Shown here: positions 4,174-35,400 of the stretch, piece after piece
Layout of the letters: each line of letters opens with the position of its first letter
Position numbering within the stretch: the stretch's first letter is position 1
From: Thermodesulfobacteriota bacterium
Lineage (GTDB): Bacteria > Desulfobacterota > BSN033 > UBA1163
DNA length: 64,000 bases
Assembly: GCA_030017685.1 (NCBI GenBank)
Contig: JASEHH010000006.1
Span: 3,082-67,081, forward strand
Direction: 5' to 3'
Position numbers and translations under genes: made by a program
The notes under the pieces: model-generated
Told to the model about the DNA's origin: nothing
The model's input: the letters and a program-made list of their open reading frames with translations, nothing else
Databases searched by the model: none

Positions 4174-4279
4174 CTCTTTACCTCCTCTCTTTTTTGCTAA
4201 AAACGTGTCACGTGTCCGCTAACCCATGCAAACAAGAAAAATTCGTGCATAGCCTTCCTTCCTGCGGGGCAGGCAGGTA

Positions 4280-4522
4280 CTACCGACGACATCTCTCGTC
4301 GCCCTCAGTAAATGAGGGCGCTACAGCCTTGCCTCTTATTTTGTTCCGATGATTCACTTTTTTGGCCTCTTTGATCCGTTTCAGGATCTCATCCATGTCG
4401 AATCGCCACGAGTCTCCGATCTTAAACCCGGGAAGTTCTCCCCCAGAGGCTAATTTGTAAATCGTCGATTCGGACAGTTTCAGATATTTCCCCAGTTCCC
4501 TGGCTGTCACGATATTCGGCAT
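4280..4522 (-). CDS. Excisionase-like (HTH_17) small DNA-binding protein
   Basis: IVTARELGKYLKLSESTIYKLASGGELPGFKIGDSWRF signature. Confidence 0.85.
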   Translation of the reverse strand: MPNIVTARELGKYLKLSESTIYKLASGGELPGFKIGDSWRFDMDEILKRIKEAKKVNHRNKIRGKAVAPSFTEGDERCRR

Positions 4523-4814
4523 ATTGTCCCCTCATTCTTATTTAACTGTAATTCAGACACTGGACTTCAGACTTTAGACATCAGACTTTTCTAATATAGG
4601 AAATTAACTCTATTCCACTCTTTTGAAATTCTTTCGTATATGCAAGAGTGTCATTCCTTCTGGTAGCTGTCAGCCGTTCGGCTAACCTCACGCCGAAGCC
4701 CTTATCCATGTGCATTCTCCAGCCATTTTTCTTTCTTCAGTCTAATGTCTGCCCGCAGCGCCAGCGCTTGCGCGGCGTGAGGTCTATAGTCTTACTGTCT
4801 GAATCACAGCTTAT

Positions 4815-5030
4815 TTAAGGCTGGGAGTAGGCAACCGACCTCTCCGTCCCTCTCTTCCGTTCTTCAAAAAGAAACCTGATCATCACATCGGGGCTTTCGC
4901 AGAACTTGACATCCCCGTCACAGATCGACCAGATGACACCGAGATCGCAATACCCGATGCCACGGCCAAAGTGAGGGCTGTCAGTGTCCCTGTAAAACCG
5001 ACAACCTTTCTTCATCAACATACCCATCAC
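4815..5030 (-). CDS. Small hypothetical protein with four Cys
   Basis: 71-aa ORF with SD GGAGG upstream; C-x16-C-x8-C-x6-C-like spacing (CRFY...YCDLG...ICDGD...FCESP). Confidence 0.55.
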   Translation of the reverse strand: MMGMLMKKGCRFYRDTDSPHFGRGIGYCDLGVIWSICDGDVKFCESPDVMIRFLFEERKRGTERSVAYSQP

Positions 5031-5054
5031 CTCCTTCCTCCCCGTCTCCTTTTT

Positions 5055-5088
5055 GAGAGAGCTCTGAAAAACTAATTTTCGCTCTCTC
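5055..5088. repeat. Hairpin repeat, copy 1
   Basis: GAGAGCTCTGAAAAACTAATTTTCGCTCTC; near-identical inverted copy at 33948-33979. Confidence 0.6.
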
Positions 5089-5190
5089 GATTACGCACCT
5101 GCCTACCGCAGGCAGGGATTCCAAAAATGATTACACAGAAATTTTTTTAATTTTAGTATGTTTCGGTCTTTGTAATCGCTTTATAATTCA
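5089..5190. repeat. GATTACACAGATT-type inverted repeat element carrying a 19-bp palindrome insert
   Basis: GATTACGCA[CCTGCCTACCGCAGGCAGG]GATT ... GATTACACAGA ... TTGTAATCG; related units at 13157-13190 and 63089-63160. Confidence 0.5.
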
Positions 5191-5220
5191 GGACTTTTAA
5201 AGAAAACGCATTTAATTCCC

Positions 5221-5352
5221 CCCTCACCCCCTCCTTCTCCCCCCTGCCTACCGGCCCCGGTCCCGACCGAGGGCGGGGCAGGCAGGCAAGGGGAGAGGGG
5301 GAATGGTGGGTGCCCTCTCCCGCCTGGTAGAGGGAAAGGGTAAGTGAGAGGG
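5221..5352. repeat. CCCTCACCCC...GGGAGAGGG REP-like hairpins with a 44-bp insert at 5243-5286
   Basis: GC-rich hairpins; the 44-mer CCTGCCTACCGGCCCCGGTCCCGACCGAGGGCGGGGCAGGCAGG recurs at 16246-16289 (inverted) and 35240-35303. Confidence 0.7.
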
Positions 5353-5380
5353 TTGATATTTAAGAAGCATTTCAATGAAC

Positions 5381-5408
5381 TTTTCGACATATAGGCGCAA
5401 AAACTTTA
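5381..5408 (-). promoter_or_regulatory. Possible sigma28 promoter for the 5030-HTH-cheW-MCP run
   Basis: TAAAGTTT...GTCGAAAA with TAAA-N16 spacing; weaker than consensus TAAA-N15-GCCGATAA. Confidence 0.35.
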
Positions 5409-5509
5409 ATAAAGTTTAAGTTGGAAATGCGGGTTAAAAAGGAAGGAATAAGAAAGAAGAAGAAAATAGACGGGATAACCTCATGTTTCGCCAAGATAAA
5501 TATTCTTGT

Positions 5510-5538
5510 TTGACATAACAGGGTTTTGCGGGTATCAT
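5510..5538 (+). promoter_or_regulatory. Sigma70-type promoter of the toxin-antitoxin pair
   Basis: TTGACA-N17-TATCAT. Confidence 0.65.
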
Positions 5539-5548
5539 GAATTTAAAT

Positions 5549-6139
5549 ATGAAAAAAATGAAACTTTATCTCGATCTTTGCGTTTTTAATAGACCTTTTG
5601 ACTACCAGGGCCAAGAGAGGATTGCTCTTGAGACAGGAGCATTTATCTATTTGCTTGAACAGATAGAAAAAGAGAACTATATTCTTATATGCTCGGAGGC
5701 GCTTGTATATGAAAATAACCAGAATCCGGACAGCCTAAGAAGAGAGAGGGTATCGACCTATTTTGAGTTAGCAAAAGATTTCATTAAATTAGAAGAATCC
5801 GATTTCAATAGGGCAAGATTCCTGAATGAAATAGGGTTTCCAGATATGATGGTCTCGTAAAAAGTCTGAAAAGGCTATTTTCTGTCATTCCTGCGCAAGC
5901 AGGAATCCAGTATTTTCAGGTAGTTAGAATTTTCTGGATTCCCGTTTTCACGGGAATGACGACTTTTTACGAGACCATCAGATATGGATGCCCTGCATAT
6001 CGCAATGGCAGAAAAGGGGGGCATAGATTTTTTTGTTACCTCTGATGATCGAATAGTGCATCATTATAAGGAAAATATTCAGGCCATCAAGGTTAGCATC
6101 ATCAATTTGTTGGAATTTGTATTAAAGGAGGTGAAATAA
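5549..6139 (+). pseudogene. PIN-domain (VapC-like) toxin interrupted by a MITE
   Basis: N-part MKLYLDLCVFNRPFD...; removing the 138 bp (element plus one TSD) restores ...GFPDMDALHIAMAEKGGIDFFVTSDD...KEVK* ending at 6139. Confidence 0.85.
5848..5979. mobile_element. 132-bp MITE, copy 1
   Basis: 19-bp TIR GATGGTCTCGTAAAAAGTC / GACTTTTTACGAGACCATC; 6-bp TSD AGATAT at 5842-5847 and 5980-5985. Confidence 0.9.
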
Positions 6140-6331
6140 ATGGGTCTTGCTTTTCCAGAAATCAGACAGAAGGGCTGGAATGCCCTTATTAAAGAGCTCG
6201 GTTACGGAGGGGCTACGAAATTTATTCTTCTCTATGAGCAAGGAGAAGGAAATTACGTCGAGAACAGGAAAGAAATTTTAAAAGGTATATCCCTCGAAAA
6301 AATTAAAAAAGAGGTATTGCTTAAAAAATAA
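6140..6331 (+). CDS. Small putative antitoxin downstream of the PIN toxin
   Basis: 63 aa; ATG abuts the restored toxin stop (TAAATG); SD AAGGAGG. Confidence 0.65.
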   Translation: MGLAFPEIRQKGWNALIKELGYGGATKFILLYEQGEGNYVENRKEILKGISLEKIKKEVLLKK

Positions 6332-6338
6332 CTTCTTA

Positions 6339-6428
6339 AAATCCCTCCCAGCCTCCCTTTGGTCTACGACCCATAGCGCCTGCCTGCCGGTAGGCGGGGT
6401 CTCTGACCCGGAGGGCAAAGGGAGGGGT
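6339..6428. repeat. AAATCCCTCCC...GGGAGGGG element with 20-bp palindrome insert at 6379-6398
   Basis: Related host element at 35222-35330; insert CCTGCCTGCCGGTAGGCGGG. Confidence 0.55.
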
Positions 6429-6433
6429 AATTA

Positions 6434-8389
6434 TCACTTCTTATCCAGAATCTCCCTCAGCTTCTGCGAAAGTTCCTTGATCGAGAAGGGTTTCTGGATG
6501 AAGCCCTTGCAGCCGCGTCTCATGATCTCCTCGGTTTGCCCGTTCATGCTGTATCCGCTCGAAAGAAGCACCTTCATTTCTGAATGGATCTCTCTCAGGG
6601 CATCGAAGGTCTCCCCTCCTCCTTTCTGAGGCATGATGAGATCGAGAATGACCAGGTCGATTTGATCCCGGTTCGTCTTATAAAGTTCGACAGCTTTCTC
6701 ACCTCTATCGGCGATCAGGACTTTGTAGCCTAACGTCTTTAATATCTTTTCTCCCACATCGAGGACATGTTCCTCATCATCCACAAGGAGGACCGTTTCT
6801 CTCCCCATCAGGACCTCTTCATCCTTCTTGATCTGTTCCTCGACCTTCCCTTCCGAAGCCGGAAGGTAGGTGAGGAAGGTGGCTCCCTTCCCCGCCTCAG
6901 ACCGGACATTGATGTATCCGTTATGCCCCTTGATAATCCCGTAGACCGAGGCCAGTCCCAGCCCTGTGCCTCTGCCCAGTTCTTTCGTGGTGAAGAAGGG
7001 GTCGAAGATGCGCTCCATCGTCTTCCGATCCATCCCGATTCCTGTATCAGTGACCGAGAGCAGAACATAGTTTCCCGGAACCGCCTCATAGAGATCTCCC
7101 TGGATCTCCAGGTGGGTCACATTAGCCGTTTTCAGAAATAGGTTTCCTCCCACGGGCATGGCATCGGCCGCATTGACCAGCAGATTCATTAGCACCTGCT
7201 CCATCTGACCCGGATCGGCTTCCAGAGGATGAAGGTCCCTGTAAAGGTCCATATGGATCACGATATTCTTTCTGGTCCGACCAAATGCCTCTGCAGTCTC
7301 TTCCACCAACTGATTCAAAAGAATGGGTTTGACTTCATAGCGGCCCTTTCTCGCATAGCCCAAAAGCTGCGCCGTCAGTCTTGACCCGTTCTGCACCTTC
7401 TTCTCGATGCTTCGGAGCATCTCATAATGGGGATGGGAGGGGTTCATATCGAGAAGCATGAGCGAAACATTTCCCTGAACCACCATGAGAAGATTATTGA
7501 AGTCGTGGGCAATGCCTCCTGCCAGGGTGCCGATCGCCTCCATCTTCTGGGCTTGAAGAAGCTGGGTCTCCATCTTCTTTCGCTCACTCACATCGTTGAG
7601 AAGAATGATGGTCGTCCGGTGCTCCTTGTCCAGGATAGGTAAAAGGCTGAGGGAAACCTGTTTGCCGTCCAGTTGCAACGGGGGATCACCGTTGACCGTC
7701 TTTCGGTGAGTGTTGAAGGTGGAGAGAAGCCCTTTCATTCTTTCTTGGTCTTTATCGTGAAACAGGTTGAGGAGGTTGGAGGCCAACAACTTCTCTTCAG
7801 GGATTCCAATCAGGGAAACGGCTGACGGATTGCTGTAGACAATTCTTCCCTGAGGGGTAATCTCCAGGATTCCTTCCGCCATACTTCCCAGAATAACTTC
7901 AAAATGCTTTCTGTCACTAAGTAACTCCTTTGTAATCTGCCGTGGAAAGGAATCCTCAAGGCCGATGACATGTCCTGTCCCCGCGACGGGAGCCCTTCGA
8001 TCCACTTCGTCCAGAGCCTTTTGAATATGTTTAGTCATCTTATCGAATGAACATTTTGCAATACAAAGGTCCGCTCCAAATTGAAGGATGTTCGTCTCTT
8101 CCTCCGATGCCGTGGCGGAAAAGACCACCAGGAATACATTCTTCAGGTCAGGGTCTTTCCGGATCATCTCACAGAGTTTCTCTCCGTCGATATTCGGCAT
8201 GATGAGGTCGGTGAAGATGATATCCGGCCTGTAGGTTTTCAAAATATCCAGGGCCGACAGACCGTCCTCCCCGGTTAAGACTTGATACCCTTCCTTTTCG
8301 AGGAGGTTCGTTATCCACTTCAACATGACCGGATCATTATCGACAACAAGGCTTTTTTTCTCCATCTCTCCCGTCCTTTCTCTTATCAT
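6434..8389 (-). CDS. Hybrid sensor kinase REC-PAS-HisKA-HATPase-REC (CckA-like)
   Basis: N-terminal receiver, PAS, H-box GGIAHDFNN, DPFFTTKELGRGTGLGLA, C-terminal receiver LVILDLIMP. Confidence 0.93.
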   Translation of the reverse strand: MIRERTGEMEKKSLVVDNDPVMLKWITNLLEKEGYQVLTGEDGLSALDILKTYRPDIIFTDLIMPNIDGEKLCEMIRKDPDLKNVFLVVFSATASEEETNILQFGADLCIAKCSFDKMTKHIQKALDEVDRRAPVAGTGHVIGLEDSFPRQITKELLSDRKHFEVILGSMAEGILEITPQGRIVYSNPSAVSLIGIPEEKLLASNLLNLFHDKDQERMKGLLSTFNTHRKTVNGDPPLQLDGKQVSLSLLPILDKEHRTTIILLNDVSERKKMETQLLQAQKMEAIGTLAGGIAHDFNNLLMVVQGNVSLMLLDMNPSHPHYEMLRSIEKKVQNGSRLTAQLLGYARKGRYEVKPILLNQLVEETAEAFGRTRKNIVIHMDLYRDLHPLEADPGQMEQVLMNLLVNAADAMPVGGNLFLKTANVTHLEIQGDLYEAVPGNYVLLSVTDTGIGMDRKTMERIFDPFFTTKELGRGTGLGLASVYGIIKGHNGYINVRSEAGKGATFLTYLPASEGKVEEQIKKDEEVLMGRETVLLVDDEEHVLDVGEKILKTLGYKVLIADRGEKAVELYKTNRDQIDLVILDLIMPQKGGGETFDALREIHSEMKVLLSSGYSMNGQTEEIMRRGCKGFIQKPFSIKELSQKLREILDKK

Positions 8390-8443
8390 CCTTTACTCGC
8401 CGCACCTTTTAAACGTCGGCTCATCTATCCGGTTGATCCCTCT

Positions 8444-9073
8444 TCATAAATCCGACAGGGGGGTCTCCTTTTTCAATCTCTCCAATTCCGGCTCTACAAT
8501 CCTTTGAAAGCATTCCGGGCAAATCCCATGAGTAAATTGAACTTCCGTATGCTCGGAAATATAGGATTCAACCTTTTGCCAGTAGTTCTGGTCATTGCGT
8601 ATATTTTTACAATAGCTGCAGATCGGCAGAAGCCCCTGAAGCTGCTTGACCCGGCGAAGGGATGCCTCAAGCTCTGTCACCCGGTCTGATAGGAGTCTTT
8701 GCAGTCTCACAACTCGCACCCCCACCTTGATGCGGGCCTGAAATTCTTCGTCATCAAAGGGCTTGGTGATGTAGTCATCCGCTCCAGCCTGCAATCCTTT
8801 TGTGATATCTTCACTCCGGTCCTTTGCTGTGAGGAGGATAATGTAGGCCGGTCTAATCTGGCTTGATTCGCGTGCCTTCCCGCAGACCTCCGCACCGTCC
8901 ATATCAGGCATCATCCAATCAAGGATGGCCAGCGGAGGCGCATCCTCCCTTTTAAGGACCTCCCAAGCCTCAATGCCATTGTGGGTGACCACAGTCTCAT
9001 ACCCCCATTTGACCAGTTTGGTCTCTATCAGACGGCAGAAAACCGGGTCGTCTTCAGCAATGAGCACTTTCAT
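8444..9073 (-). CDS. Response regulator with C-terminal Cys-rich domain
   Basis: MKVLIAEDD...LAILDWMMP...GADDYITKPF; tail ICSYCK...HGICPEC; start set at MKVLIAED. Confidence 0.9.
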   Translation of the reverse strand: MKVLIAEDDPVFCRLIETKLVKWGYETVVTHNGIEAWEVLKREDAPPLAILDWMMPDMDGAEVCGKARESSQIRPAYIILLTAKDRSEDITKGLQAGADDYITKPFDDEEFQARIKVGVRVVRLQRLLSDRVTELEASLRRVKQLQGLLPICSYCKNIRNDQNYWQKVESYISEHTEVQFTHGICPECFQRIVEPELERLKKETPLSDL

Positions 9074-9186
9074 CTTTACTCCCCCAGAAAGATCGATTTC
9101 CATCTCTCCCCTTGTAGGATATGCCTGTCTCTTCTTTGGCAGAAACTAAAAATACAGGCCAGGGCAAAGGTTTTAGCGTTGCCAGC

Positions 9187-9525
9187 TTAGCCATTCCTCG
9201 CTGTTGAGGATACCGAAACCAGTTCAGCAACCCGTTCCATCTCGGCTTTGATGGTTTGAACTGCTCTGCCGGCCCCTGTCAGGTTATTCGCGCGGGCATT
9301 CGCCTCCATCCCCCAGGCGACTCCGGAGATTCCCGTCAATCCAAGGCTGGCCGCAGAACCTTTTATGGAATGAGCCGATTCGATAACCTTCCTTGTGTCT
9401 TCCGTTTCTATGGCGGTCTCCAGTTGAATGAGGTGCAGAGAGGTCGTCTTCAGGAAGAGGTCTATCATATCCTGATATTCAGCTTCATCCAGATCCACTT
9501 TTTCCGCCAATGTCTTCAAGTTCAT
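9187..9525 (-). CDS. Hpt phosphotransfer protein
   Basis: AHSIKGSAASLG Hpt motif in a 112-aa helical protein. Confidence 0.9.
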   Translation of the reverse strand: MNLKTLAEKVDLDEAEYQDMIDLFLKTTSLHLIQLETAIETEDTRKVIESAHSIKGSAASLGLTGISGVAWGMEANARANNLTGAGRAVQTIKAEMERVAELVSVSSTARNG

Positions 9526-9564
9526 GGTTAACTCCTTTCCATTTACTTAGAAAATAAAAGTCTA

Positions 9565-9677
9565 TCGGTAAGGGTAACGAGGCCCGTATCGTTAATAAAA
9601 GGCTACGTTGATCGTCTTTTAATTCTTTTTACGTAACCGTTACCGAATGACGAAACGGGCTTCGTTACCGTAGCCGA
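9565..9677. repeat. Long inverted-repeat element, family GGT(A/T)ACG...GCCCGTATCG, copy 1
   Basis: ~23-bp imperfect IR; related copies at 16157-16314 and 22858-23012. Confidence 0.65.
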
Positions 9678-9680
9678 AAC

Positions 9681-11867
9681 CTAATCTCGAATCCATTTCT
9701 TGATCATTTCAGAAACAGCCTCTTTTTGAACAGGTTTGGACATGTAATCGTCCATACCCGCTTTCAGACAGCGCTCGCGGTCTTCGGCCATGGCATGGGC
9801 TGTCACTGCAATAATCGGGATATGCCCGGATGGCCCTTCCCTCTGACGGATCTCCGCGGTGGCAGTATAGCCGTCCATCTCAGGCATCTGGCAGTCCATC
9901 AACACCAGATCATAAGCAAATTGTTCAATTCTTCCGATCGCTTCTATCCCATTCCCAGCCGTATCAACACCACAGCCAAGTTTCTCAAGGATTTTTACCA
10001 TCATCTTTTGATTGACCGGATTGTCCTCTGCCACAAGAATGCGAAGCGGATGCTTGATCCCATCCTTGGTCTGTCGATCCCTTTCGCACCCAATCCGTAT
10101 CGATTCCTCCTCTTTCTTTTCTTCTCCGAAGCGCCGCTCCAGGAGTTGAAAAAGCCTGTCCCTGCGGACCGGCCTGTTGAGAAAACCATCAAACCCCGCC
10201 TCCCTGAACTTCTGTGCATTCCGCTCCAATGGCGGAGAGAGGCTCAGAATGAAGAGGTCTGTCATCCCGGCCTGCCTGATCTTTTGGGCCGCCCCGAATC
10301 CCCACGGGATCTCAATATCGATGAAACAGAGATGAAACGGAGTTCCTCCATCAAAGGATCTTTTCAATGTGGGGAGAATCTCTTCTTCCTTCGTGAGTGT
10401 GGTCACGCGAATCCCGGCGGATTCGAGAATCGATTGCATCAGGTTCATGCGGGCCTGATGGCGATCGACAAGGAGAATCCTTTTAGAGGAAAAAGACGGG
10501 GAAATAAATCTTTTTACCTGATCGTTTTCCGATTTTTCAAACCAGGCTATAAAATGGAAGAGGCTTCCCTTACCGGGCTCGCTCTCGGCCCAGACATCTC
10601 CGCCCATCGCCCCGGAAATCTGTTTGCAGATCGACAGCCCAAGCCCTGTCCCTCCATATCTTCTGGTCGTGGAGCCATCCGCCTGCTGAAAAAGTTCAAA
10701 GATGACGGTCAATTTATCCTTCGGGATGCCGATCCCCGTGTCCCGGACCATCACATGGAGCTTCACGCGGTCGGCCTGCTCTTCTTCCCGATCGATGGTC
10801 ATTTCGATCTCGCCTGACTCCGTGAATTTGGCGGCGTTTCCCGCAAGGTTCAACAGGACCTGTCTGAACCGGTGCATATCCCCTTTTACAGAAGAGGGAA
10901 GATTTTTCCCGATTCGGCATAAGACTTCCACGGGTTTCCGGTTGATCTTAGGGACGACCATCTTGCAAACCTCATAAACCGCCATCTCCGGGTCAAAATC
11001 GATCTTTTCAAGATGGACCTGCCCCGCTTCCATTTTTGAAAAATCGAGAATGTCATTGATCAAGGAAAGCAGGGCTTCGCCGCTGCTCCTGATCGTGATA
11101 GTATAGTCGAACTGTTCCTCTTCGAGCTTTGTTTCGAGGAGCATATCCGTGAAACCGATCACGGCATTGAGCGGCGTCCGTATCTCGTGGCTCATGTTTG
11201 CAAGAAACTGGCCTTTTGTCACACTGGCCACTTTTGCCAACTCGAGCGCTTTCCGCAGTTCATCGGTCCTCTTCTGAACGATCCTTTCGAGATTCTGGTT
11301 TTGATCATGAATTCTCCGGTAGAGGACCGAATGCTCAATCGCATGGGCGGTATTGAATAGAATGAGCGTCAACAGATTGGACTGCACATCGCTCAAGGAA
11401 TGGCTCTCCGAAGTCAGGGCGCCTGCAAACATTCCCACCACATTCGATCTCGTCACCAGGGGATGAAGGATCATGGGCTGGTCGAAATACCTCGGTGAAA
11501 CCGTCAGGCTTCGATTCTGTTGAAGGGCCCAGGCAAAGTGTCCCTCCTCGATCTGGAACTCCAGCTCCTTCCGGAGCAGAGGCCGGTCGGCTTCCGGCTC
11601 GCAATGGGTGAGAACGAAATCGAAATCCTCCTCGTCGACAGTCATAAATGCGAGGGTCTGGAATTGCATCAGCCGCCTCAAATACAGCCGGGCCGTGCTG
11701 AAAATTTTGAAAGGCTCCTGGTCCGGCGAGAAACTGGCCTGGACATCGCCGAGGGAAACCATCCATTCCAGCGATTCCATCATCCACCGGTTATGATCCT
11801 CTAACTGTTTGATACGAGTGTTCAGTTTAACGATGTCCGGGCCTTCATCCAAAAAAGGGGTCATCAC
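9681..11867 (-). CDS. Hybrid sensor kinase GAF-HisKA-HATPase-REC-REC (BarA/RpfC-like)
   Basis: [37 protein letters not shown], degenerate REC then intact [12 protein letters not shown]. Confidence 0.93.
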
Positions 11868-16112: not shown

Positions 16113-16156
16113 GTTCAACTGTCAATTGCTCAGAAAATAAAAGTTTAAAGTCCAAA

Positions 16157-16314
16157 GGTAATGGTAAAGATGCCCGTATCGTCATTCGGTTACGTTGTTC
16201 GTCTTCTCAATCTTTAACCGTAACCATTCGACGATTTACGAAACGCCTGCCTGCCCAGCCCTCGGTCGGGACCGGGGCCGGTAGGCAGGGGCTTCGTCAC
16301 CGTAACCGAAACCT
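16157..16314. repeat. Inverted-repeat element copy 2 with 44-bp insert at 16246-16289
   Basis: Removing 16246-16289 restores ACGAAACGGGCTTCG, as at 9650-9664. Confidence 0.7.
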
Positions 16315-16421
16315 AAGGACTTGATTGATTTTTATTGTTCGTGCCTGTCCCGTATAAACGGGAGGTGACGTAGCCGTTGCCCATCAATTAATGAGGTATT
16401 CTAACTTCGCAGAGAAACAGC

Positions 16422-18569: not shown

Positions 18570-19039
18570 TAAGTGTCCTGAATTTCGCCAAAATTGGTAT
18601 AACGTCCTCATAACTTATTGATTTTATTTAAATGTCGATGCAAGCTCGGAATAACAATTTGCATCATTGTATTATTTTGAAACGCCCTTACACATCCCAA
18701 TTTAACTGATATCATGTCATTAAAATGACATTTCCCCGTCAAAAAATTTTGATCCACCGCCTGACATTGGACTGTAAGACGGTGAGACTACAATCCTAAG
18801 AATGGTAGCATCATTTTTTCCGTGATAGAAATCCATGGGAATGTCAACTCCAGAGGAGCAGGCGGGCCAGCGGAGAAAGATTTAGGGCGGCACCGCTTAA
18901 GGAGTGACTCCAGACGCTCCAAGACCAACAAAAACCTCATTTTCATTGACTACGAAAGTTTCCCTTAACCGTCTAATGATCCGCAATCCTAAAGATTTCG
19001 GAGTCTGGCTTGCCTGCCCCTCTGGAGTCCATTCTGCCA

Positions 19040-20266
19040 TCACGAAATTGTAGACGCTTCCACTAAAAATCCTGAGCTCCACTCCACGGCATTCATGTAA
19101 AGATGGGCAGTCCTCCCCTCATCGATTCCAAGCTTGAGCCCCTGTTCGGAGAGTTTATTCCATTCTCCTCTTTCATAAGAGAGGACATATTGATAAACCT
19201 CTCCCAAACGGTTCTCTTCTCCCAATAATGCCTTCTTGACGTCCTCCGCAATCGGAATCTCCAGGAGAATTTCGGAAAGCGGCCGGCCCAGGATGGCATC
19301 GATCATCGAGAACATTCCCATGAGAAAGAGATCTTCGGAACGGCGGAAGAGTCCGGTAAATGGGGCGAGTGATTCACAAAATTTTGCCCGGAGGATCGAT
19401 TGCGTGACCACATCCTCCGGTTTATCCTCTCCAAGGGTGGCGAGCGTGACGAGTGTGATCCACTTTCTGATCTCCCTCTCTCCTAACAGCAGAAGGGCCT
19501 GCTTGAGGGACGAGATCTTATTTCTCAATCCGAAGAATGCGGAATTGATGTAACGGAGGAGTTTGAACGAAAGGGAGACCTCTCTCTTGATGATTTCCGT
19601 TAACCTCCCGAAATCAAGCTCGGGCCGGTGGATCTCCTGAAGCACACTCAGATAATGAAGCTTGAACCCCGGGATGTCCTTTCCCGAAATGATCTTCGGT
19701 TTGCTGAAAAAATAGCCCTGGCAGTAGGTATAGCCCATCCCCTTTGCCTCTTCCAGCATCTCCAGGGTCTCCACCTTCTCGGCCAGAAACCGGACTCCCG
19801 AAGGTCCAAATTCCTGCACCAGACCGCTTCGAGCCTCCTTCTCCGTCGACAAAAAATCGACCTTTATAAAGTCCGTCAATTCGATCAGAGGCTGGTACCG
19901 GTCGTCATAGACAAAATCGTCCAAGGCCAGAAGGTAGCCGGCGCGTTTCAATTTTTCGCAGGCGGCCACCACCTTGCCATCCGGGGCTACATTTTCAAGA
20001 ATCTCTACGACGATCCGTTCCTTCGGGATGAGAAAGAGAAACTCATTGAGGAGGATGTCCCGTGTGATGTTGATGAAAGCCCTTTTCCCTCCGGTCAGGG
20101 ACTGGATGCCCAGGAGAAAGAAACTGTCCGCAATGACTTTGGAGGTGGCCTGATCAGGATCCGTATGCCGGAAGACATTGTCTAATCCTGAACGGAAGAG
20201 GAGTTCATAGCCATAGACCTTCTGGTTCATATCGAAGATGGGCTGTCTGGCGATGAAGGTCTCCAT
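19040..20266 (-). CDS. EAL-HDOD protein (YuxH/PdeH/CdgJ-like c-di-GMP phosphodiesterase)
   Basis: FIARQPIFD...GYELLFR...ALDDF...LAEKVET...QGYFFSKP followed by HDOD (SLSFKLLRYINSAFFG). Confidence 0.92.
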   Translation of the reverse strand: METFIARQPIFDMNQKVYGYELLFRSGLDNVFRHTDPDQATSKVIADSFFLLGIQSLTGGKRAFINITRDILLNEFLFLIPKERIVVEILENVAPDGKVVAACEKLKRAGYLLALDDFVYDDRYQPLIELTDFIKVDFLSTEKEARSGLVQEFGPSGVRFLAEKVETLEMLEEAKGMGYTYCQGYFFSKPKIISGKDIPGFKLHYLSVLQEIHRPELDFGRLTEIIKREVSLSFKLLRYINSAFFGLRNKISSLKQALLLLGEREIRKWITLVTLATLGEDKPEDVVTQSILRAKFCESLAPFTGLFRRSEDLFLMGMFSMIDAILGRPLSEILLEIPIAEDVKKALLGEENRLGEVYQYVLSYERGEWNKLSEQGLKLGIDEGRTAHLYMNAVEWSSGFLVEASTIS

Positions 20267-25489: not shown

Positions 25490-25497
25490 AATGGCAT

Positions 25498-26649: not shown

Positions 26650-26669
26650 GATGATTAACCCAGATGTTG

Positions 26670-26998: not shown

Positions 26999-27032
26999 GA
27001 TATGGAACCTGATGGAGGAAATCATTTAACCA

Positions 27033-27866: not shown

Positions 27867-27911
27867 TCCTTTATGAATGAAATTGTGCGCAAAATGGTAA
27901 CAAAGAAAAAA

Positions 27912-28175
27912 CTCTAAACCCTAAACACGAAACCCTAAATAAACTCAAAACACAAATTAAAAAACTCGTATCACTTTAGCTCTTTGAAAAAGTCCCCACT
28001 TATGTCATTCCCGTGAAAACGGGAATCCAGAATCTAAAACCTCTGGATTCCTGCTTCCGCAGGAATGACAAGCTTATTGGGCTAAATCACCAAACAATTT
28101 TCAAAGCACTAAATTGATGCCATATTTTAAACTTTAGGCTTTGGATTTTGGGTTTGTTTAGAGTTTAGGGTTTCA
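27912..28175. mobile_element. Nested element: heptamer arrays around a TTTGAAAA/TTTTCAAA wrapper around a GTCATTCCC...GGAATGAC core (28004-28069)
   Basis: Core matches the inside of the 132-bp MITE; lies between convergent motB and the kinase. Confidence 0.6.
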
Positions 28176-28226
28176 ATTCTTTGCTTTGTATTTCCTTGTA
28201 GTCTGTTGGATTCTGACTGAGCCGGT

Positions 28227-28991: not shown

Positions 28992-29098
28992 GGTTTTCAG
29001 GTGTCCATCTGAAAGGGGGATTGAATAGCATTAGCGGCCTCACATTAACCTGATCCCATTCCCTTTGTCAAACCCAAATTTCAAATAACTCCTCCCTT

Positions 29099-29812: not shown

Positions 29813-29854
29813 TTTTAAATCCCGTTCGAATTGAAGAAAACGAGGATATCGTGA

Positions 29855-29962
29855 CCGGAACGTGCCCCGTCCCGCCGAAGCGGGATAGGCGGGGTCAAGG
29901 GGCACAATATAAAATGAGATTACCTTACCGGGAAGCCCCGCCCTGTGGGCGGAGAGCTTCAT
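29855..29962. mobile_element. Non-coding GC-rich hairpin element (resembles IS200/IS605-type end remnant)
   Basis: GTGCCCC...GGGGCAC stem enclosing CCCGCCGAAGCGGGA; terminal hairpin GCCCCGCCCTGTGGGCGGAGAGC. Confidence 0.45.
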
Positions 29963-30402
29963 TATCTTCTTACATCTAAAAACCTCGAAGGATGGGCCGC
30001 TTTCCCCATATAGCCGCGGACCGTGAGCATCCCTTGAAAGGCTTTCTGCAACTCGGCCTTGACCTCATTCCGCAAAGCCGCAATGCGTTTCTGACACTCT
30101 TCGTCAAAGGTCTTCACGGTTTGAAGCACTTCTTCGATCGCCCTGTAGAGCAGGAGAATCTCTTCCCTTAATCGCTCCGGCCATTCGGTCCCGGAAAGAG
30201 GAGGCTTACCCGCAATCCTTCTGATTTCATCGTCCATCCGGTCAATCCGGCCGATCAGCTCCTGGCGCTTCGCCATCCACCGGGTCACCTCTCCCATGTC
30301 CGGCAGGTCCAGGCTCGCCCTCATCGATTCGGAAATGGATAAAAACTCTTTCAGGGTCCTCAGCTTTTCTGTCAGGTACTGATGAAACCGAAAAGGGTCC
30401 AT
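29962..30402 (-). CDS. FlgN/FliT-like flagellar export chaperone
   Basis: Helical 146 aa directly after fliS; C-terminal YMGKAAHPSRFLDVRR. Confidence 0.7.
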   Translation of the reverse strand: MDPFRFHQYLTEKLRTLKEFLSISESMRASLDLPDMGEVTRWMAKRQELIGRIDRMDDEIRRIAGKPPLSGTEWPERLREEILLLYRAIEEVLQTVKTFDEECQKRIAALRNEVKAELQKAFQGMLTVRGYMGKAAHPSRFLDVRR

Positions 30403-30409
30403 GCTCTCC

Positions 30410-30856
30410 TCAACGCAACAGGATTCCTTCCTCCGGAGTGGAGAAAGACAGATCCTCCTTCTGGGGGAAGATGTTTTTACCGCCTGGCTGGCGATACAAG
30501 GCTTCCTCCCAGGCTGATTTCAACTGTTCAAGCATTCCCGCCACCTCGCTAAACCCGTTCACATCCCTTCTGTGATCGCTTTTCAGAATATGACCGATCA
30601 TAAATCCATAAAGGCGATCCAGTTGTTTTGCGATCTCTCCCCCTCTTTCAAAGTCGAGGGTCTCTCTCAAATGATTGAGGAGGTCCAGCGTCTTTTGAAC
30701 CGCCCTGCCCTTTGCCTCATAATCCCGGGACAGATATTTCGTTTTCGCCTGAACCAGACCCTGGATGGCCTCCTCATAACAGAGGATGATCAGTCTCTTC
30801 GGGTCTGCTGTCAGGATGGAAGATTTCTGGTAAGCCTGGTATCCGGATCCAAACAT
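30410..30856 (-). CDS. fliS: Flagellin chaperone FliS
   Basis: YQKSSILTADPKRLIILCYEEAI...LDFERGGEIAKQLDRLYGFM...LKSAWEE. Confidence 0.93.
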   Translation of the reverse strand: MFGSGYQAYQKSSILTADPKRLIILCYEEAIQGLVQAKTKYLSRDYEAKGRAVQKTLDLLNHLRETLDFERGGEIAKQLDRLYGFMIGHILKSDHRRDVNGFSEVAGMLEQLKSAWEEALYRQPGGKNIFPQKEDLSFSTPEEGILLR

Positions 30857-30913
30857 ATTGACAATGCCTCCTCCCTCTAAAAACCTAAATCCAAATTTCT
30901 AAACTCTCAATTC

Positions 30914-31031
30914 TTAAGGCTACCTCTAAAAATGTCATTTCTGCGAAAGCAGGAATCCATAAGTTTTTGACATTACTGGACTCCCGCCTTCGCGGGAGTG
31001 ACAAATTGGGAATTATTAGAGGTTCCCTTAA
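30914..31031. mobile_element. MITE-like element with GTCATT...GAGTGAC core (30934-31002)
   Basis: Wrapper IR TTAAGGCTACCTCTAA / TTAGAGGTTCCCTTAA (14/16). Confidence 0.6.
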
Positions 31032-31068
31032 CTCTAACCTCTTAACTCTAAACTTTAACCTCTCTCCC

Positions 31069-33432
31069 TTACCACCAGCCCCGGCTGACTGTATTGATCT
31101 GGCCCGTGAGCCAGCTCGTCTGGCTCTGCAATGTGCTGAGAGCCGTCTCCATGGCGACGAATCTACGCTCCAATTCGGCCATCCTCTGGTCCAGTCGAGC
31201 TTTCATGGTCTCAATATTATCCTCCAAACGATCGATCGTATCCTGGTTCGTCTCCTTTTTATGGGTGATCGTCCCATCGACTGAATCCGTAATGGAATAG
31301 AGGGAACGATCCAGGAGCTCGGCGATGCCATAAGTGAGGGAAAAACTTCCCACTCCCCCTGTGGCCGTTCCAGAGTAACGGACGACAAGGCCCTTGGCAT
31401 TTCCGTTTATGCCTTTCAGGAACTCACCCTCTCCGGTAGCATCCCCTGGGGTCTCAAAATAGCCTGCTACCGGATCCACGCCCGTGATTTGAACGTTGTA
31501 GGTCCCCGCCTTGGTATCGATCGTATGATAGAGATAGCTTAAATTGTTGTTGGTGGATGACCAATCGGCGGCAAACAGTTTTTTAACATCAACAAAGTTA
31601 GTCTCAAAATAATCTTGAAGCTTGCTGCCATCGATAGTCAACCTACTATTCGTCCCCATACTGATGCCGATCAGTCCGAGGGTTGAAAAATTGGCCGACA
31701 CTCCTGAGACCTGGTTCAAAACGATTCTGGTAAGATTCGATTTGATCGTCCGCAGTGTGCCATCCCCAAAAAGAGGACCCCCGGGTTTCCGTGTCTCCGA
31801 ATTGTAAGCCAACTGTCCATTGATGGCGTCCACGGCGTCATTATAGGCGGTCACAAACTCTTCAATTTTTTCCTTCACGCCATCGTAGTCTCTTCCCACC
31901 GTGAGGGAAACCGTGGTATCGCTGGCTGCCTTTTTCAGATTGAGAGTGACACCGGGGATGATGTCATCCGCTGTATTGGAGGAGGGGGCCATGGCCACCC
32001 CGTCGACTGAGATGCTCGCATTGGCGCCGGCCTGGATTTGTCGCGACCGGAGGGTCGAAATGGCTCCAAAATTGTTGTCGGTGTCAAACTTGAGGCTGGT
32101 TTTGCCGGGGGTCAGGGTGACAGCCAAATTCGTATCACCGATTTTATTGTTCACGATCTGGATTTTCCCATCTGCGGTGATCGAAGCGGCCACCTCCCCG
32201 TACCTCGTCTGAATCTCCGTCAGAAGGGCTCCGATGGTGGTGGCATCGTTAATGGTAAAAACACTATTGACTGCGGTGCCGTCGGTGTTAGTTCCAGTCA
32301 GGGTGATCGTATCTCCAGAGATGTAATCAACATAACCATCGATATCTTTAATCAAAGTGGATGAAGTAATGGCAGCCCCACCCGATGTATTGGCCACATC
32401 GCCTGTCACTCCTCTTACATCAGAAACACCCGCCCTTTTAAGGATACCGAGGGTCTCCAGGATGTTGCCGGCATCGGTATAAGTGATCGTATTCCCTTCG
32501 ATGAGTAACCTATATTTCGTCGTTCCATCGACCGTCTCGCTCACGACGGAGGCAGGATTGGAGGAGAACACACCGCTGAAGACCGTGTTGATGGCATCCC
32601 GGATCGTATTTAAAGAATCGGTTGCCAGATCGATCGCAAAGGACCTAACAGTGCCGTTGATGGTGATCGTCACTTCCCCGCTCTGGGGGCTGGTGAGGTT
32701 GAGCAGATCGGAGCCGCCCACTGCCTTGTCCGCTGCCGAAAAGGCATCGCTTTTATGGCCAGCCGCAACCGCATTCTTTGCGGTCTTCGCCGAGGCATCG
32801 ACAAAACCAAGGGATCCGAGAAGGTCTGATGGACCACCATTCAAAAGGCTCATCCCTGCAGAGCCCTCATCATCGCTGGTCAGGATCAGCCGGTAACCAC
32901 TCGTCCCATAGTTGACAATGGAAGCCGTAACCTTGGAGGCGTTCGTTCCGGTGTTAACCGCATTGATCTTGTCCCGAATGGAAGCGAGGCTGTCGGTGGC
33001 CGAAATTTTAACAGTCCGGCCTCCTGCGACGAGGTCTCCCGATAGGTTGAGACCCTCGCTCTGGCTGGCGTAGCTGTTGGAGGAGAGCCTCTGGGCGCTG
33101 GCTAATTGGCTGACGACAATTCGATAAGTCCCCGGAGAACCATCCGTGCTCGTAGTCACGGAAAGGATGTCTTCAGCCTTCGTCGTCGTGTCGGAAGAGA
33201 GCGCGGTGGTATAGAGGTTGAAACCGGCGGGTTTATTTAAGGCGCCTGCTGAGTTTTTTAAAGAGAGCAATTTAGTATTGAGGCTCTGCCAGGCGCTGGT
33301 CCTCTCCTCATGGATCTTTTTCCGGCCTTCGACCATTTCGATTTTTTTATATTCGATTTGTCTCAATTGATCAATGATCTTCCGCCAGTCCAGGCCGCTT
33401 GCAAGACCGCTGACTACACTGGTTGCAGCCAT
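31069..33432 (-). CDS. fliD: Flagellar filament cap FliD (enlarged)
   Basis: SGLASGLDWRKIIDQL N-terminus, IIPGVTLNLK, FVTAYND, LERRFVAMETALSTLQSQTSWLTGQI C-terminus. Confidence 0.94.
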   Translation of the reverse strand: MAATSVVSGLASGLDWRKIIDQLRQIEYKKIEMVEGRKKIHEERTSAWQSLNTKLLSLKNSAGALNKPAGFNLYTTALSSDTTTKAEDILSVTTSTDGSPGTYRIVVSQLASAQRLSSNSYASQSEGLNLSGDLVAGGRTVKISATDSLASIRDKINAVNTGTNASKVTASIVNYGTSGYRLILTSDDEGSAGMSLLNGGPSDLLGSLGFVDASAKTAKNAVAAGHKSDAFSAADKAVGGSDLLNLTSPQSGEVTITINGTVRSFAIDLATDSLNTIRDAINTVFSGVFSSNPASVVSETVDGTTKYRLLIEGNTITYTDAGNILETLGILKRAGVSDVRGVTGDVANTSGGAAITSSTLIKDIDGYVDYISGDTITLTGTNTDGTAVNSVFTINDATTIGALLTEIQTRYGEVAASITADGKIQIVNNKIGDTNLAVTLTPGKTSLKFDTDNNFGAISTLRSRQIQAGANASISVDGVAMAPSSNTADDIIPGVTLNLKKAASDTTVSLTVGRDYDGVKEKIEEFVTAYNDAVDAINGQLAYNSETRKPGGPLFGDGTLRTIKSNLTRIVLNQVSGVSANFSTLGLIGISMGTNSRLTIDGSKLQDYFETNFVDVKKLFAADWSSTNNNLSYLYHTIDTKAGTYNVQITGVDPVAGYFETPGDATGEGEFLKGINGNAKGLVVRYSGTATGGVGSFSLTYGIAELLDRSLYSITDSVDGTITHKKETNQDTIDRLEDNIETMKARLDQRMAELERRFVAMETALSTLQSQTSWLTGQINTVSRGWW

Positions 33433-33538
33433 TTCAACCTCCTGCTCAGTTTAAGGCAAGCCCTCTTGATCCTCAGGGAAGAGAATTTCATCTCGATAGA
33501 GAAGAAGAGGTATAGGGAATGTAAAAAGTTCATGGCCC

Positions 33539-33916
33539 TTATAGCTTCGAATTTAATAAGATCCCGATACTCTCTCCGATCTTCGAAGAGAGGGACTGAA
33601 TGGCTTCGGGCGGTATCTGGCGGATCACATTTCCGTTTTCGTCCAGGACCTTGATGATGACGATCCCTGCTTCCCGGTCCGGAATGAATTGCAGGTTGTA
33701 ATCGATGCTCCTCATAAACTGGTTGAGATTTTCAGCTAACTGTCTGATGGTCTCCTCTTGTTCCCCCGTCACTTTTTCAATGGAATCCCTGTGGGGCAAC
33801 TCCACCGCTTTGGTCTGAGCCGGCTTTTTAAGGACCTTCTGGGAAGGATCATGAAGCATCGACCGGATGAGGGTATCTTTTATGGTCGGGGTTTCCATCT
33901 CAACCTTCTCCGTCAT
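33539..33916 (-). CDS. flaG: FlaG family protein
   Basis: YNLQFIPDREAGIVIIKVLDENGNVIRQIPPE; between fliC and fliD; start may be 33898. Confidence 0.9.
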   Translation of the reverse strand: MTEKVEMETPTIKDTLIRSMLHDPSQKVLKKPAQTKAVELPHRDSIEKVTGEQEETIRQLAENLNQFMRSIDYNLQFIPDREAGIVIIKVLDENGNVIRQIPPEAIQSLSSKIGESIGILLNSKL

Positions 33917-33947
33917 GATGAGATTTCTGAAAAAGTCTAAAAAATCA

Positions 33948-33979
33948 AGAGAGCGAAAAATAGTTTTTCAGAGCTCTCT
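33948..33979. repeat. Hairpin repeat, copy 2
   Basis: Inverted near-copy of 5055-5088. Confidence 0.6.
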
Positions 33980-33983
33980 ATGG

Positions 33984-34025
33984 GAAAAGAGGAGAGAGGA
34001 GAAAGGAATCATCCTTTCCCCTCTC
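33984..34025 (-). terminator. Putative intrinsic terminator after fliC
   Basis: GAGAGGGGAAAGGA / TCCTTTCTCCTCTC stem (13/14) followed by CUCUUUU on the minus strand. Confidence 0.55.
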
Positions 34026-34042
34026 AACATTAACCTTCAGGA

Positions 34043-34876
34043 TTAACGACCCCCGAGTAAGGCAAGGATACCCTGGGGCGCCATGTTGGCCTGAGCAAGC
34101 ATGGCTGTGCCTGCCTGGAGCAGGATCTGATTCTTTGTGAAATTGACCATCTCATAGGCCATATCCACCTCCCGAATGGTCGATTCGGAGGCTGCGAGGT
34201 TTTCAATAGAAATCGCCAAGTTGGCTGAAGCAAAGTCGAGCCGGCTCTGGGCCGCTCCGATTTCTCCCTGGACAATGCTCAAAGAGGTAAGAGAATTATC
34301 GATGGCGGTTAAGGCCGCCTGGGCGCTTGCAAGATTGGCCAAGCTCAGACCATTTAATCCCAAATTACTGGAGAGCAATCCACTTGAGGTCGTAACCGAA
34401 ACCCTGTCTTCTGTGGCTGTATTTGCGGATCCGATTTGAAATGTGAAACTGAGGGCTCCGCTGAGCAAGTTCGTGGTGCCGTATTTCGTATCATAGGCAA
34501 TTCGATCAATTTCTGAAAGGAGGGCGCTTGCCTCGGCATTGATTCGAGCTCTGGCATTGGTGTCGCTGTTATCCGATGAAGCGGTCGTCGCCAATTCCTT
34601 CAGACGTTCGATAATCGCCTCAATTTGATTGGTTCCTCCATCTGCCACCTGCAGCATCGCCGTGCCCTGGGCAACATTCTGCTGGGCCATCCTCAGCCCT
34701 CTGACCTCCATTCTGAACTTATTGGCAATGGAAAGTCCGGCGACATCGTCTTTGGCCTTATTGATCCGGTAGCCCGATGAGAGCCTTTCCATCGATACAG
34801 ACAGCCGGGTGTCGGTATCGGCAAGCTGACGGTGAGCATTTAACGCAGCGATATTGGTGTTAATTCGAAGTGCCAT
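34043..34876 (-). CDS. fliC: Flagellin (minimal, 277 aa)
   Basis: MALRINTNIAALNAHR...LSSGYRINKAKDDVAGL; IREVDMAYEMVNFTKNQILLQAGTAMLAQAN. Confidence 0.97.
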   Translation of the reverse strand: MALRINTNIAALNAHRQLADTDTRLSVSMERLSSGYRINKAKDDVAGLSIANKFRMEVRGLRMAQQNVAQGTAMLQVADGGTNQIEAIIERLKELATTASSDNSDTNARARINAEASALLSEIDRIAYDTKYGTTNLLSGALSFTFQIGSANTATEDRVSVTTSSGLLSSNLGLNGLSLANLASAQAALTAIDNSLTSLSIVQGEIGAAQSRLDFASANLAISIENLAASESTIREVDMAYEMVNFTKNQILLQAGTAMLAQANMAPQGILALLGGR

Positions 34877-34883
34877 AGTCTTT

Positions 34884-34918
34884 TCCTCCTTGGATTTTAA
34901 TTTTGGGCTTCCATGCCC
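34884..34918 (-). promoter_or_regulatory. Two putative CsrA-binding sites in the fliC leader
   Basis: Hairpin GGGC-AUGGAA-GCCC (34905-34918) and AAGGAGGA overlapping the SD (34884-34893). Confidence 0.65.
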
Positions 34919-35016
34919 GGTGGTTAAAGGTTAATAGTTGTCACTTGACACTTGCAACTTGTAACTTTTTACCCCTCCTTTCCTCTGAATTTAAGCCCGG
35001 ACTTCTTTCACCATAT

Positions 35017-35043
35017 CTATCGACGGATGGAGGGAAAAACTTA
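35017..35043 (-). promoter_or_regulatory. Putative sigma28 promoter of fliC
   Basis: TAAG-N15-GTCGATAG. Confidence 0.65.
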
Positions 35044-35046
35044 AAT

Positions 35047-35178
35047 GATGGTTTCGTAAAAAGTCTGAAAATCCCAATATCAGTCATTCCTGCGCAAGCA
35101 GGAATCCAGTATTTTTAGATAGTTAGAATTCTCTGGATTCCCGTTTTCACGGGAATGACGACTTTTTACGATTCCATC
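35047..35178. mobile_element. 132-bp MITE, copy 2
   Basis: TIR GATGGTTTCGTAAAAAGTC / GACTTTTTACGATTCCATC; 6-bp TSD TTAAAT at 35041-35046 and 35179-35184; same length as copy 1. Confidence 0.9.
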
Positions 35179-35221
35179 TTAAATGGTTTGTATCAATTTA
35201 GCGCTTTGAAAAAGCTTCATA

Positions 35222-35400
35222 AAATCCCTCCCCACCTCCCCTGCCTACCGGCCCCCTGCCTACCGGCAGGCAGGCGGTCCCGACCGAGGGCGGGGCAGGC
35301 AGGCGCTCTGGGTCGGAGACCAAAGGGAGGAGAAACACTTCCCCCTTTGTAATCTTTTTCCTGTCAAAGACAGGCAAAAGGGGGATTGAAGGGGATTTAG
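35222..35400. repeat. AAATCCCTCCCC...GGGGATTT element with nested 44-bp and 20-bp inserts (35240-35303)
   Basis: 44-mer of 5243-5286 with CCTGCCTACCGGCAGGCAGG inserted at 35255-35274. Confidence 0.7.

Follow-up and report, generated by a model that had tools for sequence, protein, structure and literature searches.

The window and its copies of X

The 64,000-nt stretch of DNA analysed here (the window) is a chromosomal segment of an uncultured Desulfobacterota bacterium with chemotaxis, two-component, flagellar and sugar-modification genes, and it carries several copies of a palindromic sequence whose exact 20-mer, CCTGCCTACCGGCAGGCAGG, we call X (the palindrome family is written CCTGCCTRCCGGYAGGCAGG). 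We describe X as a mobile element, the derivatives of it that the window holds, and a small GIY-YIG nuclease gene that adjoins it in other genomes. The CheA protein of the window is 72% identical to that of metagenome-assembled genomes (MAGs) named Desulfobacterota and 85-96% identical to that of sediment and groundwater contigs. No tRNA and no transposase is encoded within the window, and the statement of an earlier note on this DNA that no mobiliser gene lies there was confirmed.

The orientation of X was read from its common variant, which has A at position 8 and C at 13 (on the opposite strand, G..T), and that of its 44-nt form from the asymmetric core. The sole exact 20-mer of the window lies at 35255-35274 on the + strand, in the A..C orientation. 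It sits within a 44-mer at the junction GGCCC^CGGTC, and the two form a 64-nt composite (35240-35303, +) that is itself placed at CCTCC^CGCTC of a host hairpin and was also found in contigs of metagenome runs X1, X2, X4 and X5. The 44-mer, CCTGCCTACCGGCCCCGGTCCCGACCGAGGGCGGGGCAGGCAGG, consists of the arms of X around a 24-nt inner hairpin placed near the centre of X. A plain copy occupies 5243-5286 (+) at TCCCC^CAAGG, in the centre of a host hairpin (CCTCACCCC.../...GGGGAGAGG), and excising 35255-35274 from the composite yields precisely this copy, as the earlier note had proposed. Another 44-mer, reversed and with one mismatch, lies at 16246-16289 (-), at GCC^CGT on the element strand, in a host repeat of ~200 nt.

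The other copies are variants. A 19-mer with a one-base deletion, CCTGCCTACCGCAGGCAGG, is found at 5098-5116 (+) inside a GATTACRCA^GAT repeat; among loci outside the window (numbered with L), it recurs in L043 and L276, a one-mismatch form of it is present in L253/L273, and X itself occupies the matching host position in L036. A 20-mer with one mismatch, CCTGCCTGCCGGTAGGCGGG, lies at 6379-6398 (-; read as G..T on the + strand), within the loop region of a host hairpin ~100 nt long. The sequence at 4252-4277, to which no strand is assigned, is a decayed relative with one arm, CCTGCCTGCC, intact on the - strand, and a neighbourhood resembling it adjoins X in L023. The six places given in the earlier note all exist, but they are not equivalent, with one exact 20-mer and a merely decayed copy among them.

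When single-stranded, all forms of the element (20-mer, 19-mer and 44-mer) fold as stable hairpins, and exact X gives a stem of 7-8 bp. Neither the 20-mer nor the 44-mer core was matched in 100 shuffles of the window, and the arm CCTGCCT occurs 22 times in the window vs 8.1 expected.

Clean insertion and polymorphism among close relatives

The host repeat in which the 44-mer of 16246 resides has an empty paralogue at 9540-9700 (+). Alignment of 16123-16330 with this paralogue leaves one gap only, of 44 nt, and a contig of run X1 connects 16244 directly to 16289, with exactly 44 nt omitted; on both counts the clean insertion of 16246-16289 relative to the repeat at 9650, claimed in the earlier note, was upheld. 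A 173-nt contig of run X1, at genome depth and covering 5058-5242, is 19 nt shorter in its total length, which would fit an empty 19-mer site. The 19-mer site at 5098-5116 is filled in the strains of runs X2, X4 and X5. In the strains of runs X2 and X4, host and element at 6334-6436 are replaced by 11 nt.

Larger differences were seen in syntenic relatives. Those with CheA proteins 92% and 85% identical to that of the window are without the entire repeat clusters at ~16150-16320 and 34877-35464, and the cluster that holds 35240-35303 is absent from syntenic L306/L307. Conversely, the FlaG/FliD spacer, empty in the window, holds 128 nt in one syntenic relative, made up of a host hairpin of its own with X. 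The element is thus present in some related strains and absent from others, in metagenome contigs as well as in syntenic relatives, and the idea of an ultra-small mobile unit is supported by these empty and filled sites.

Direct repeats of ≥2 nt flanking the element were not in excess at 177 non-redundant 20-mer sites and 77 44-mer sites (254 in all), and the empty sites have no duplication, so the earlier reading of insertion without a target-site duplication (TSD) stands. Flank enrichment was limited to a single C...C, which represents a target preference and not a duplication, because the empty sites show so. X and its derivatives are insertion-polymorphic among close relatives, and they insert without a TSD.

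It is hardly credible, in light of these results, that X is an immobile sequence, whether an artefact of assembly or a signal under selection in the host, namely a terminator or a hairpin that binds protein or RNA. Its exact conservation and stable hairpin would suit a host signal, but the insertion polymorphisms with clean empty sites largely refute a non-mobile reading; moreover, X lies within the pseudo-tRNA remnants described below, breaks coding-like DNA, exists in decayed copies, has no U-tract and has no Rfam match. In Rfam 15, no match to the window reached the gathering score, and the sub-threshold hits were generic miRNA-like hairpins. Assembly artefact was rejected since the copies are diverged, occur in isolates and in both short- and long-read assemblies, and have junctions that are repeated in four independent metagenomes.

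Distribution across phyla and phages

In a scan with one genome per species, exact X was found in at least 120 genome stretches of many phyla, with unrelated flanks; by our own estimate, ~2 occurrences would be expected by chance in 596 Gb. Its hosts, among the matches listed, are Bacteroidota (cultured isolates too), Patescibacteria/candidate phyla radiation (CPR), Omnitrophota, Planctomycetota, Nitrospirota, Proteobacteria, Chloroflexota and others, and X-carrying loci range in GC content from 26% to 72%. In IMG/VR, X is present in 48 viral stretches. This spread of an identical 20-mer over bacterial phyla and phages was missed entirely in the earlier note.

The exact core of the 44-mer was found in at least 120 metagenome contigs. 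Given that these contigs have a narrow GC content of 46-49%, similar to that of the window, and further repeats in common with it, the 44-mer would seem to be a derivative amplified in, and restricted to, a single lineage. Word depth in run X1 was ~55,000 for the 44-mer vs ~75 for unique window sequence. The 44-mer was not found in PLSDB plasmids. Within the library of literature searched, we found no account of the X sequence or of its association with a GIY-YIG gene; literature matches to X half-sites proved to be E. coli DHFR primers.

Linkage of X to a GIY-YIG gene at tRNA genes

Clustering of the open reading frames (ORFs) around X returned housekeeping families with one exception, a small GIY-YIG ORF directly adjoining X. 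With a profile hidden Markov model, a GIY-YIG ORF was detected beside X in L025, L052, L089, L093, L118, L138 and L163. All 14 distinct intact ORFs of the family that were examined have X, or a one-base variant of it (L118), within ~110 nt. These include eight homologues picked irrespective of X (P0053, P0062, P0026, P0013, P0044, P0119, P0006 and P0260), and exact X was found ~20-110 nt away in 8/8. GIY-YIG genes beside the palindrome, a possibility that the earlier note had raised, thus do occur, in other genomes.

For 13 of the 14 ORFs, X lies in a truncated tRNA copy beside an intact tRNA. The recurrent layout is a 5' tRNA part broken by X, the ORF, and the intact tRNA; in L297 and L301, a 3' tRNA fragment with X is located downstream of the ORF. 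The cassette tRNAs are tRNA-Leu(CAA), Lys, Asn, Arg and Met, and X interrupts their copies in one of three places: the D-loop (e.g. GGTA^GAGC), the T-loop, or either edge of the anticodon loop (31|32 or 38|39). The cassette of L311 holds exactly the window's variant of X. More generally, 9 of 184 X copies had a tRNA at a distance of ≤100 nt, vs 1.8 expected at random. Collectively, X is tightly linked with the GIY-YIG family at tRNA genes.

The same arrangement has left a mark on protein annotation. LPAGRQ, PACRQA and CLPVGR are the commonest peptides in the N-terminal extensions of the family, and in this larger, independent set one of them occurs in 26 of 150 family representatives (clusters at 50% identity) but in 0 of 120 CheA controls. 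Where starts are miscalled (P0246-P0288 and others), the ORFs run upstream through X and the tRNA remnant, including the tRNA-Leu-derived AELVD.

Compared by eye with the intact tRNA, the part of the remnant left of X showed 0 differences in ~190 nt across eleven cassettes. The X-to-ORF segment, also read by eye, had 8 differences in ~230 nt, mostly ≤~13 nt from X. The remnants that differ from the intact tRNA (L025, L118, L291, L298, L302 and L304) all do so to the right of X, toward the ORF. This one-sidedness suggests scarring on one side of X or a foreign origin of the X-ORF segment, and it could reflect error-prone or foreign-templated synthesis on that side.

Two tRNA loci were of additional interest. 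A phage tRNA-Met from IMG/VR (L152:2239-2330) has X in its variable loop, and ARAGORN still calls it as a 92-nt tRNA, in which X may be tolerated as a long variable arm. L302 and L303, from one assembly, have the same GIY-YIG/tRNA-Arg(ACG) locus, followed by an integrase island in one and a sulfatase gene in the other; this tRNA gene also serves as an integration site.

The X-linked protein family

The protein is 77-96 aa long and consists of the GIY-YIG catalytic domain alone (PF01541, E 1e-14 to 1e-17). It scored far under the cutoff of the group I intron endonuclease model. Residues Y5, Y15, G17, R25, H29, N30 and E61, with the catalytic Tyr, Arg, His/Asn and Glu among them, and the C-terminal motif RKREKYLKSGxGxE are invariant, while overall pairwise identity is ~40-60%. 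The AlphaFold (AF2) model has a pLDDT of 90.7. By Foldseek (probability 1.00, TM 0.58-0.68), the closest folds are UPF0213 proteins and then Slx1, and hmmsearch against the PDB gave 1ywl (3e-13) and 1zg2 (6e-13), both UPF0213, and SLX1 (1e-5).

A word-indexed search returned more than 7,800 relatives at E≤1e-8, and a search of representatives returned 5,121 clusters (50% identity) at E≤1e-10. Named members are mostly Bacteroidota, Patescibacteria and Omnitrophota, the groups that dominate the X loci too. In GenBank phages only distant GIY-YIG relatives were found. The ORFs diverge to ~40-60% identity while X stays letter-perfect, which argues for constraint on X in the role of a functional partner.

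Orientation and target preference

At 44-mer sites, position -1 is C in 65 of 77 and position +1 is C in 53 and T in 14. Oriented 20-mers from many phyla have C or A at -1 (52/57) and C or T at +1 (55/57), and 72% of the perfect-palindrome copies agree with 5'-[C/A]^[C/T]-3' on the element strand. The tRNA sites nearly all obey the same rule, the exception being the second X of L093. Insertion takes place in a fixed orientation at 5'-[C/A]^[C/T]-3'. The asymmetry of the flanks, C...C and not C...G, is an argument for a strand-specific step. A model of two independently added half-sites was also considered; it fits the variant frequencies (118/57/2) and was rejected, since it predicts G|C flanks for most perfect copies and these were seen in 9 of 118.

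The Russian-doll nesting described in the earlier note is real. X within X was found in six other genomes (L020, L026, L032, L059, L065 and L110), invariably at YC^CGG; X within the 44-mer of the window has the junction CCC^CGG; and 44-mers nested in 19-mers have the junction TAC^CGC. The further proposal that the element targets DNA hairpins held in part. Junctions in loops of ≤12 nt closed by perfect stems of ≥6 bp account for 12% of sites vs 3-4% of controls (odds ratio 3.6-4.2), and with perfect stems of ≥7 bp the odds ratio is 6-13. Such strong loops nevertheless make up only ~12% of sites, and the [C/A]^[C/T] junction rule is more general. A looser test, in which loops were assigned by minimum free energy, gave no loop enrichment at X and 44-mer sites, and the nested X site of the window 44-mer falls in a predicted stem. 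X prefers structured or repeated DNA as its target. This covers other small hairpins, copies of X (at YC^CGG) and, in tRNA-gene copies, loops or the boundaries between stem and loop.

These targets bear on the alternative that X has no dedicated enzyme and spreads by hairpin template switching, by gene conversion among host repeats or by homologous recombination at tRNA genes, with the GIY-YIG cassette an incidental carrier or attractor. We consider this fairly unlikely. Many hosts are indeed multi-copy repeats, so that filled-to-empty conversion is possible (three host-repeat families contain 33 of the 76 distinct 44-mer flank pairs), and composites of host and X recur at separate loci. However, the 76 flank pairs fall into 33 unrelated host contexts that have only the [C/A]^[C/T] junction in common. 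The fixed orientation and the de novo insertions in coding-like DNA also speak against it, and X remains exact across phyla while the adjoining ORFs diverge to ~45% identity.

One class of host hairpins, CCTCACCCC..CCCTCTCC-loop-GGAGAGGG..GGGGTGAGG (window 5215-5330; L076, L098, L146, L147, L218, L221 and L232), is found in many phyla and repeatedly holds X or the 44-mer centrally. The strains of runs X2, X4 and X5 have an additional 32-nt hairpin, TCTCCGAGCCGTAGGCTCATACGAGCCGGAGG, at window position 5228, in the host hairpin arm and adjoining the 44-mer. A reading of X as a mini-intron was discarded: X-interrupted ORFs are mostly spurious frames in high-GC viral contigs, and the "interrupted" tRNAs are truncated duplicates beside intact genes.

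The GIY-YIG nuclease as candidate mobiliser

From the linkage at tRNA genes, we infer that the GIY-YIG nuclease is the likeliest mobiliser of X. It seems probable, if only just, that X is a 20-bp non-coding hairpin mobile element mobilised in trans by the 77-96-aa family, with the 19-mer and the 44-mer as its derivatives. A bare GIY-YIG nuclease of the UPF0213/Slx1 clade would act in trans on X by recognising and nicking or cutting structured DNA, namely the hairpin or cruciform of X, tRNA-gene cloverleaves and other hairpins. Excision, copying and insertion of the hairpin would be completed by host repair or ligation. The cassette of truncated tRNA copy with X, ORF and intact tRNA would spread by recombination into tRNA genes; because tRNA genes are conserved, it would thereby gain a route between phyla and through phages, which may ferry it between hosts. 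In the Desulfobacterota lineage, the 44-mer would have been amplified in a burst of non-autonomous copies, in the manner of miniature inverted-repeat transposable elements (MITEs), and the nuclease gene for the window lineage may lie elsewhere in the genome or in a phage, or may have been lost.

Several observations weigh against this proposal. No member gene turned up in the window, in 70 kb of sequence from syntenic relatives or across 0.5 Mb of contigs with the 44-mer, so the GIY-YIG link comes from lineages other than that of the window. More than 90% of X copies are solo, with the nuclease gene absent within 4-8 kb. Two decayed GIY-YIG ORFs depart from the pattern: X is absent at the one in L112, and at the one in L054 another palindrome occupies the same site in the D-loop. 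GIY-YIG enzymes hydrolyse DNA without covalent intermediates, so they cannot carry out strand transfer alone. The association could also be indirect, with X merely invading tRNA-like remnants as the only tolerated tRNA-shaped targets. Finally, the C...C asymmetry of the flanks suggests a single-strand mechanism, classically the chemistry of HUH enzymes.

An HUH/Y1 mobiliser was the earlier note's own suggestion. In this case a Y1/HUH single-strand transposase encoded elsewhere would move X in the way that repetitive extragenic palindromic (REP) sequences and palindrome-associated transposable elements (PATEs) are presumed to be moved, the enzyme being a REP-associated tyrosine transposase (RAYT) or similar to the TnpA of IS200/IS605. 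The absence of a TSD, the orientation-specific insertion beside preferred nucleotides and the A.C/G.T asymmetry in the hairpin of the common variant, by which strands could be distinguished, are all consistent with it, and in L047 X and one Y1_Tnp gene are 14 nt apart. The suggestion was nevertheless not supported. Y1_Tnp was found in 3 of 168 X loci, none with X on both sides, by a motif scan with clustering that could miss divergent genes; other REP-like palindromes flank these genes, and X adjoins one. No link between TnpA(Y1) and X emerged from the 168 loci by this approach. X is also without the GT(A/G)G head of REPs, is present in tiny CPR genomes and is identical across phyla, whereas REP-RAYT pairs are lineage-specific. 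We regard a Y1/HUH mobiliser as unlikely.

Another enzyme that leaves no TSD and is unlinked in cis, such as an IS110-like enzyme or a serine or tyrosine recombinase with X as its core site, is a highly unlikely mover of X. With two 9-bp inverted arms around CG, X does resemble a core site, and the lack of a TSD would fit; but no recombinase family is recurrent near X in ~2 Mb of loci, and no X-like sequence is common to the targets.

For mobilisation by the GIY-YIG nuclease, a bolder form can be stated, which we regard as possible but doubtful. At 20 bp, X would then be the smallest mobile DNA known, moved by a new type of transposition in which a bare, structure-specific GIY-YIG nuclease of ~80 aa would cut a hairpin or cloverleaf and host ligation or repair would paste the hairpin, and the cassette would pass from phylum to phylum by homing, phage-borne, into tRNA genes. 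The many "universal" mini-hairpins of environmental genomes would thereby be explained.

Relation to known systems

REP sequences and their REPIN doublets, with RAYTs, offer the nearest parallel in form: they too are short, GC-rich, extragenic, non-coding palindromes that lack a TSD and often cluster or nest with other repeats, and a small enzyme of the nuclease type presumably mobilises them in trans. X differs in beginning with CCTG on both strands, GTAG being internal and present in the G..T variant alone, and in being a perfect or near-perfect 20-mer that is identical in many phyla and phages and not specific to a species or genus. Unlike a REPIN, it moves as one hairpin and not as a doublet, and the linked gene is GIY-YIG, not Y1. 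MITEs and the PATEs of IS200/IS605 resemble X in being non-autonomous and defined by their ends, and the 44-mer shows that cargo is tolerated between the arms of X. MITEs generate a TSD, whereas X does not; PATEs have neither a TSD nor more than one insertion orientation, as with X, but consist of two distinct subterminal hairpins with a 4-5-nt target, against a single hairpin with ~1 nt on each side for X. X is far smaller than either. X would belong with the non-autonomous palindromic elements that depend on a nuclease acting in trans; both its enzyme class and its cross-phylum reach are unexpected.

GIY-YIG homing genes of the phage T4 seg and I-TevI type are, like the gene described here, small selfish genes situated at conserved genes (here tRNA) and also present in phages. 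The cassette probably spreads by recombination-dependent homing as they do, judging from the architecture, in which the ORF sits between a truncated and an intact tRNA copy. The X-linked protein, however, is a catalytic domain without the tethered DNA-binding domain of the I-TevI/Seg type, the cassette duplicates part of the tRNA and so keeps the tRNA gene intact, and the gene is accompanied by an invariant palindrome that proliferates alone.

UPF0213 (YhbQ-like) proteins and Slx1 are the best sequence and fold matches of the family (1ywl, 1zg2, 6seh and 7cq3), which is set apart from them by its own C-terminal motif. Slx1 cleaves branched and stem-loop DNA, a preference that fits a hairpin-centred element. 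To our knowledge, no mobile-element role or partner palindrome has been described for UPF0213 or Slx1, and bacterial UPF0213 proteins, 1ywl and 1zg2 among them, are uncharacterised.

Organellar GC-rich mobile hairpins, which include the yeast mitochondrial GC clusters, double-hairpin elements and the repetitive hairpin-forming elements of sponges (PMC2800124), are likewise tiny palindromes. They invade one another as well as intergenic DNA and have no known dedicated enzyme. Unlike X, they belong to organelles and are specific to a lineage, and no nuclease gene is known to be linked to them.

Other small elements in the window and in X niches

A MITE-like element of 138 nt lies at 5841-5978, with a second copy at 35045-35186; it has terminal inverted repeats ATGGTCTCGTAAAAAGTC... 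and an 8-bp TSD, CAGATATG, and it interrupts a PIN-like ORF that is uninterrupted in a contig of run X1. In the contigs compared, from four metagenome runs, GTT stands in place of the 277 nt at 4537-4813, which are a further recent insertion. A repeat of ~256 nt at 18807-19062 is 90-94% identical to parts of unrelated metagenome contigs (L230 and L281) and of the relative L306. In this Desulfobacterota lineage, layers of small elements, nested in one another and different from one close relative to the next, are remodelling the intergenic regions.

The hairpin family GTCATTCCYGCGMAAGCRGGAATCCAG occurs at 5884-5920, 28004-28040, 30934-30970 and 35083-35119 of the window and in L017 and L085; found also in a Flavobacteriaceae isolate and in other phyla, it is a second cross-phylum mini-hairpin. 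Further GC-rich mini-palindromes were seen in niches typical of X (L054:~890-925; L148:8914-8927 and 10517-10530; L014 and L022). Among them, CCCGCCCGTACCGAACGGGTACGTTCGGGCGGG lies at position 21|22 of a tRNA D-loop beside the decayed GIY-YIG ORF of L054, TCCGCCGCGGCGGA lies in loops of REP-like hairpins, and TCCGCCAGCTGGCGGA is found in a gammaproteobacterial MAG and a Saccharibacteria MAG.

Implications

X and its tRNA cassettes point to an annotation artefact, in which ORFs are extended across X with LPAGRQ or PACRQA N-termini and pseudo-tRNA fragments go unexplained. An 80-aa nuclease with a 20-bp palindromic partner site also lends itself to directly testable biochemistry. If the link between the two holds, they would form a very widespread selfish system of which we found no description, with a nuclease family of thousands of 50%-identity clusters ranging over Bacteroidota, CPR, Omnitrophota and phages. 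Short hairpins that are identical in unrelated phyla would then have a concrete explanation, and the link would give a role to stand-alone GIY-YIG proteins and to the enigmatic bacterial proteins of the UPF0213 type.

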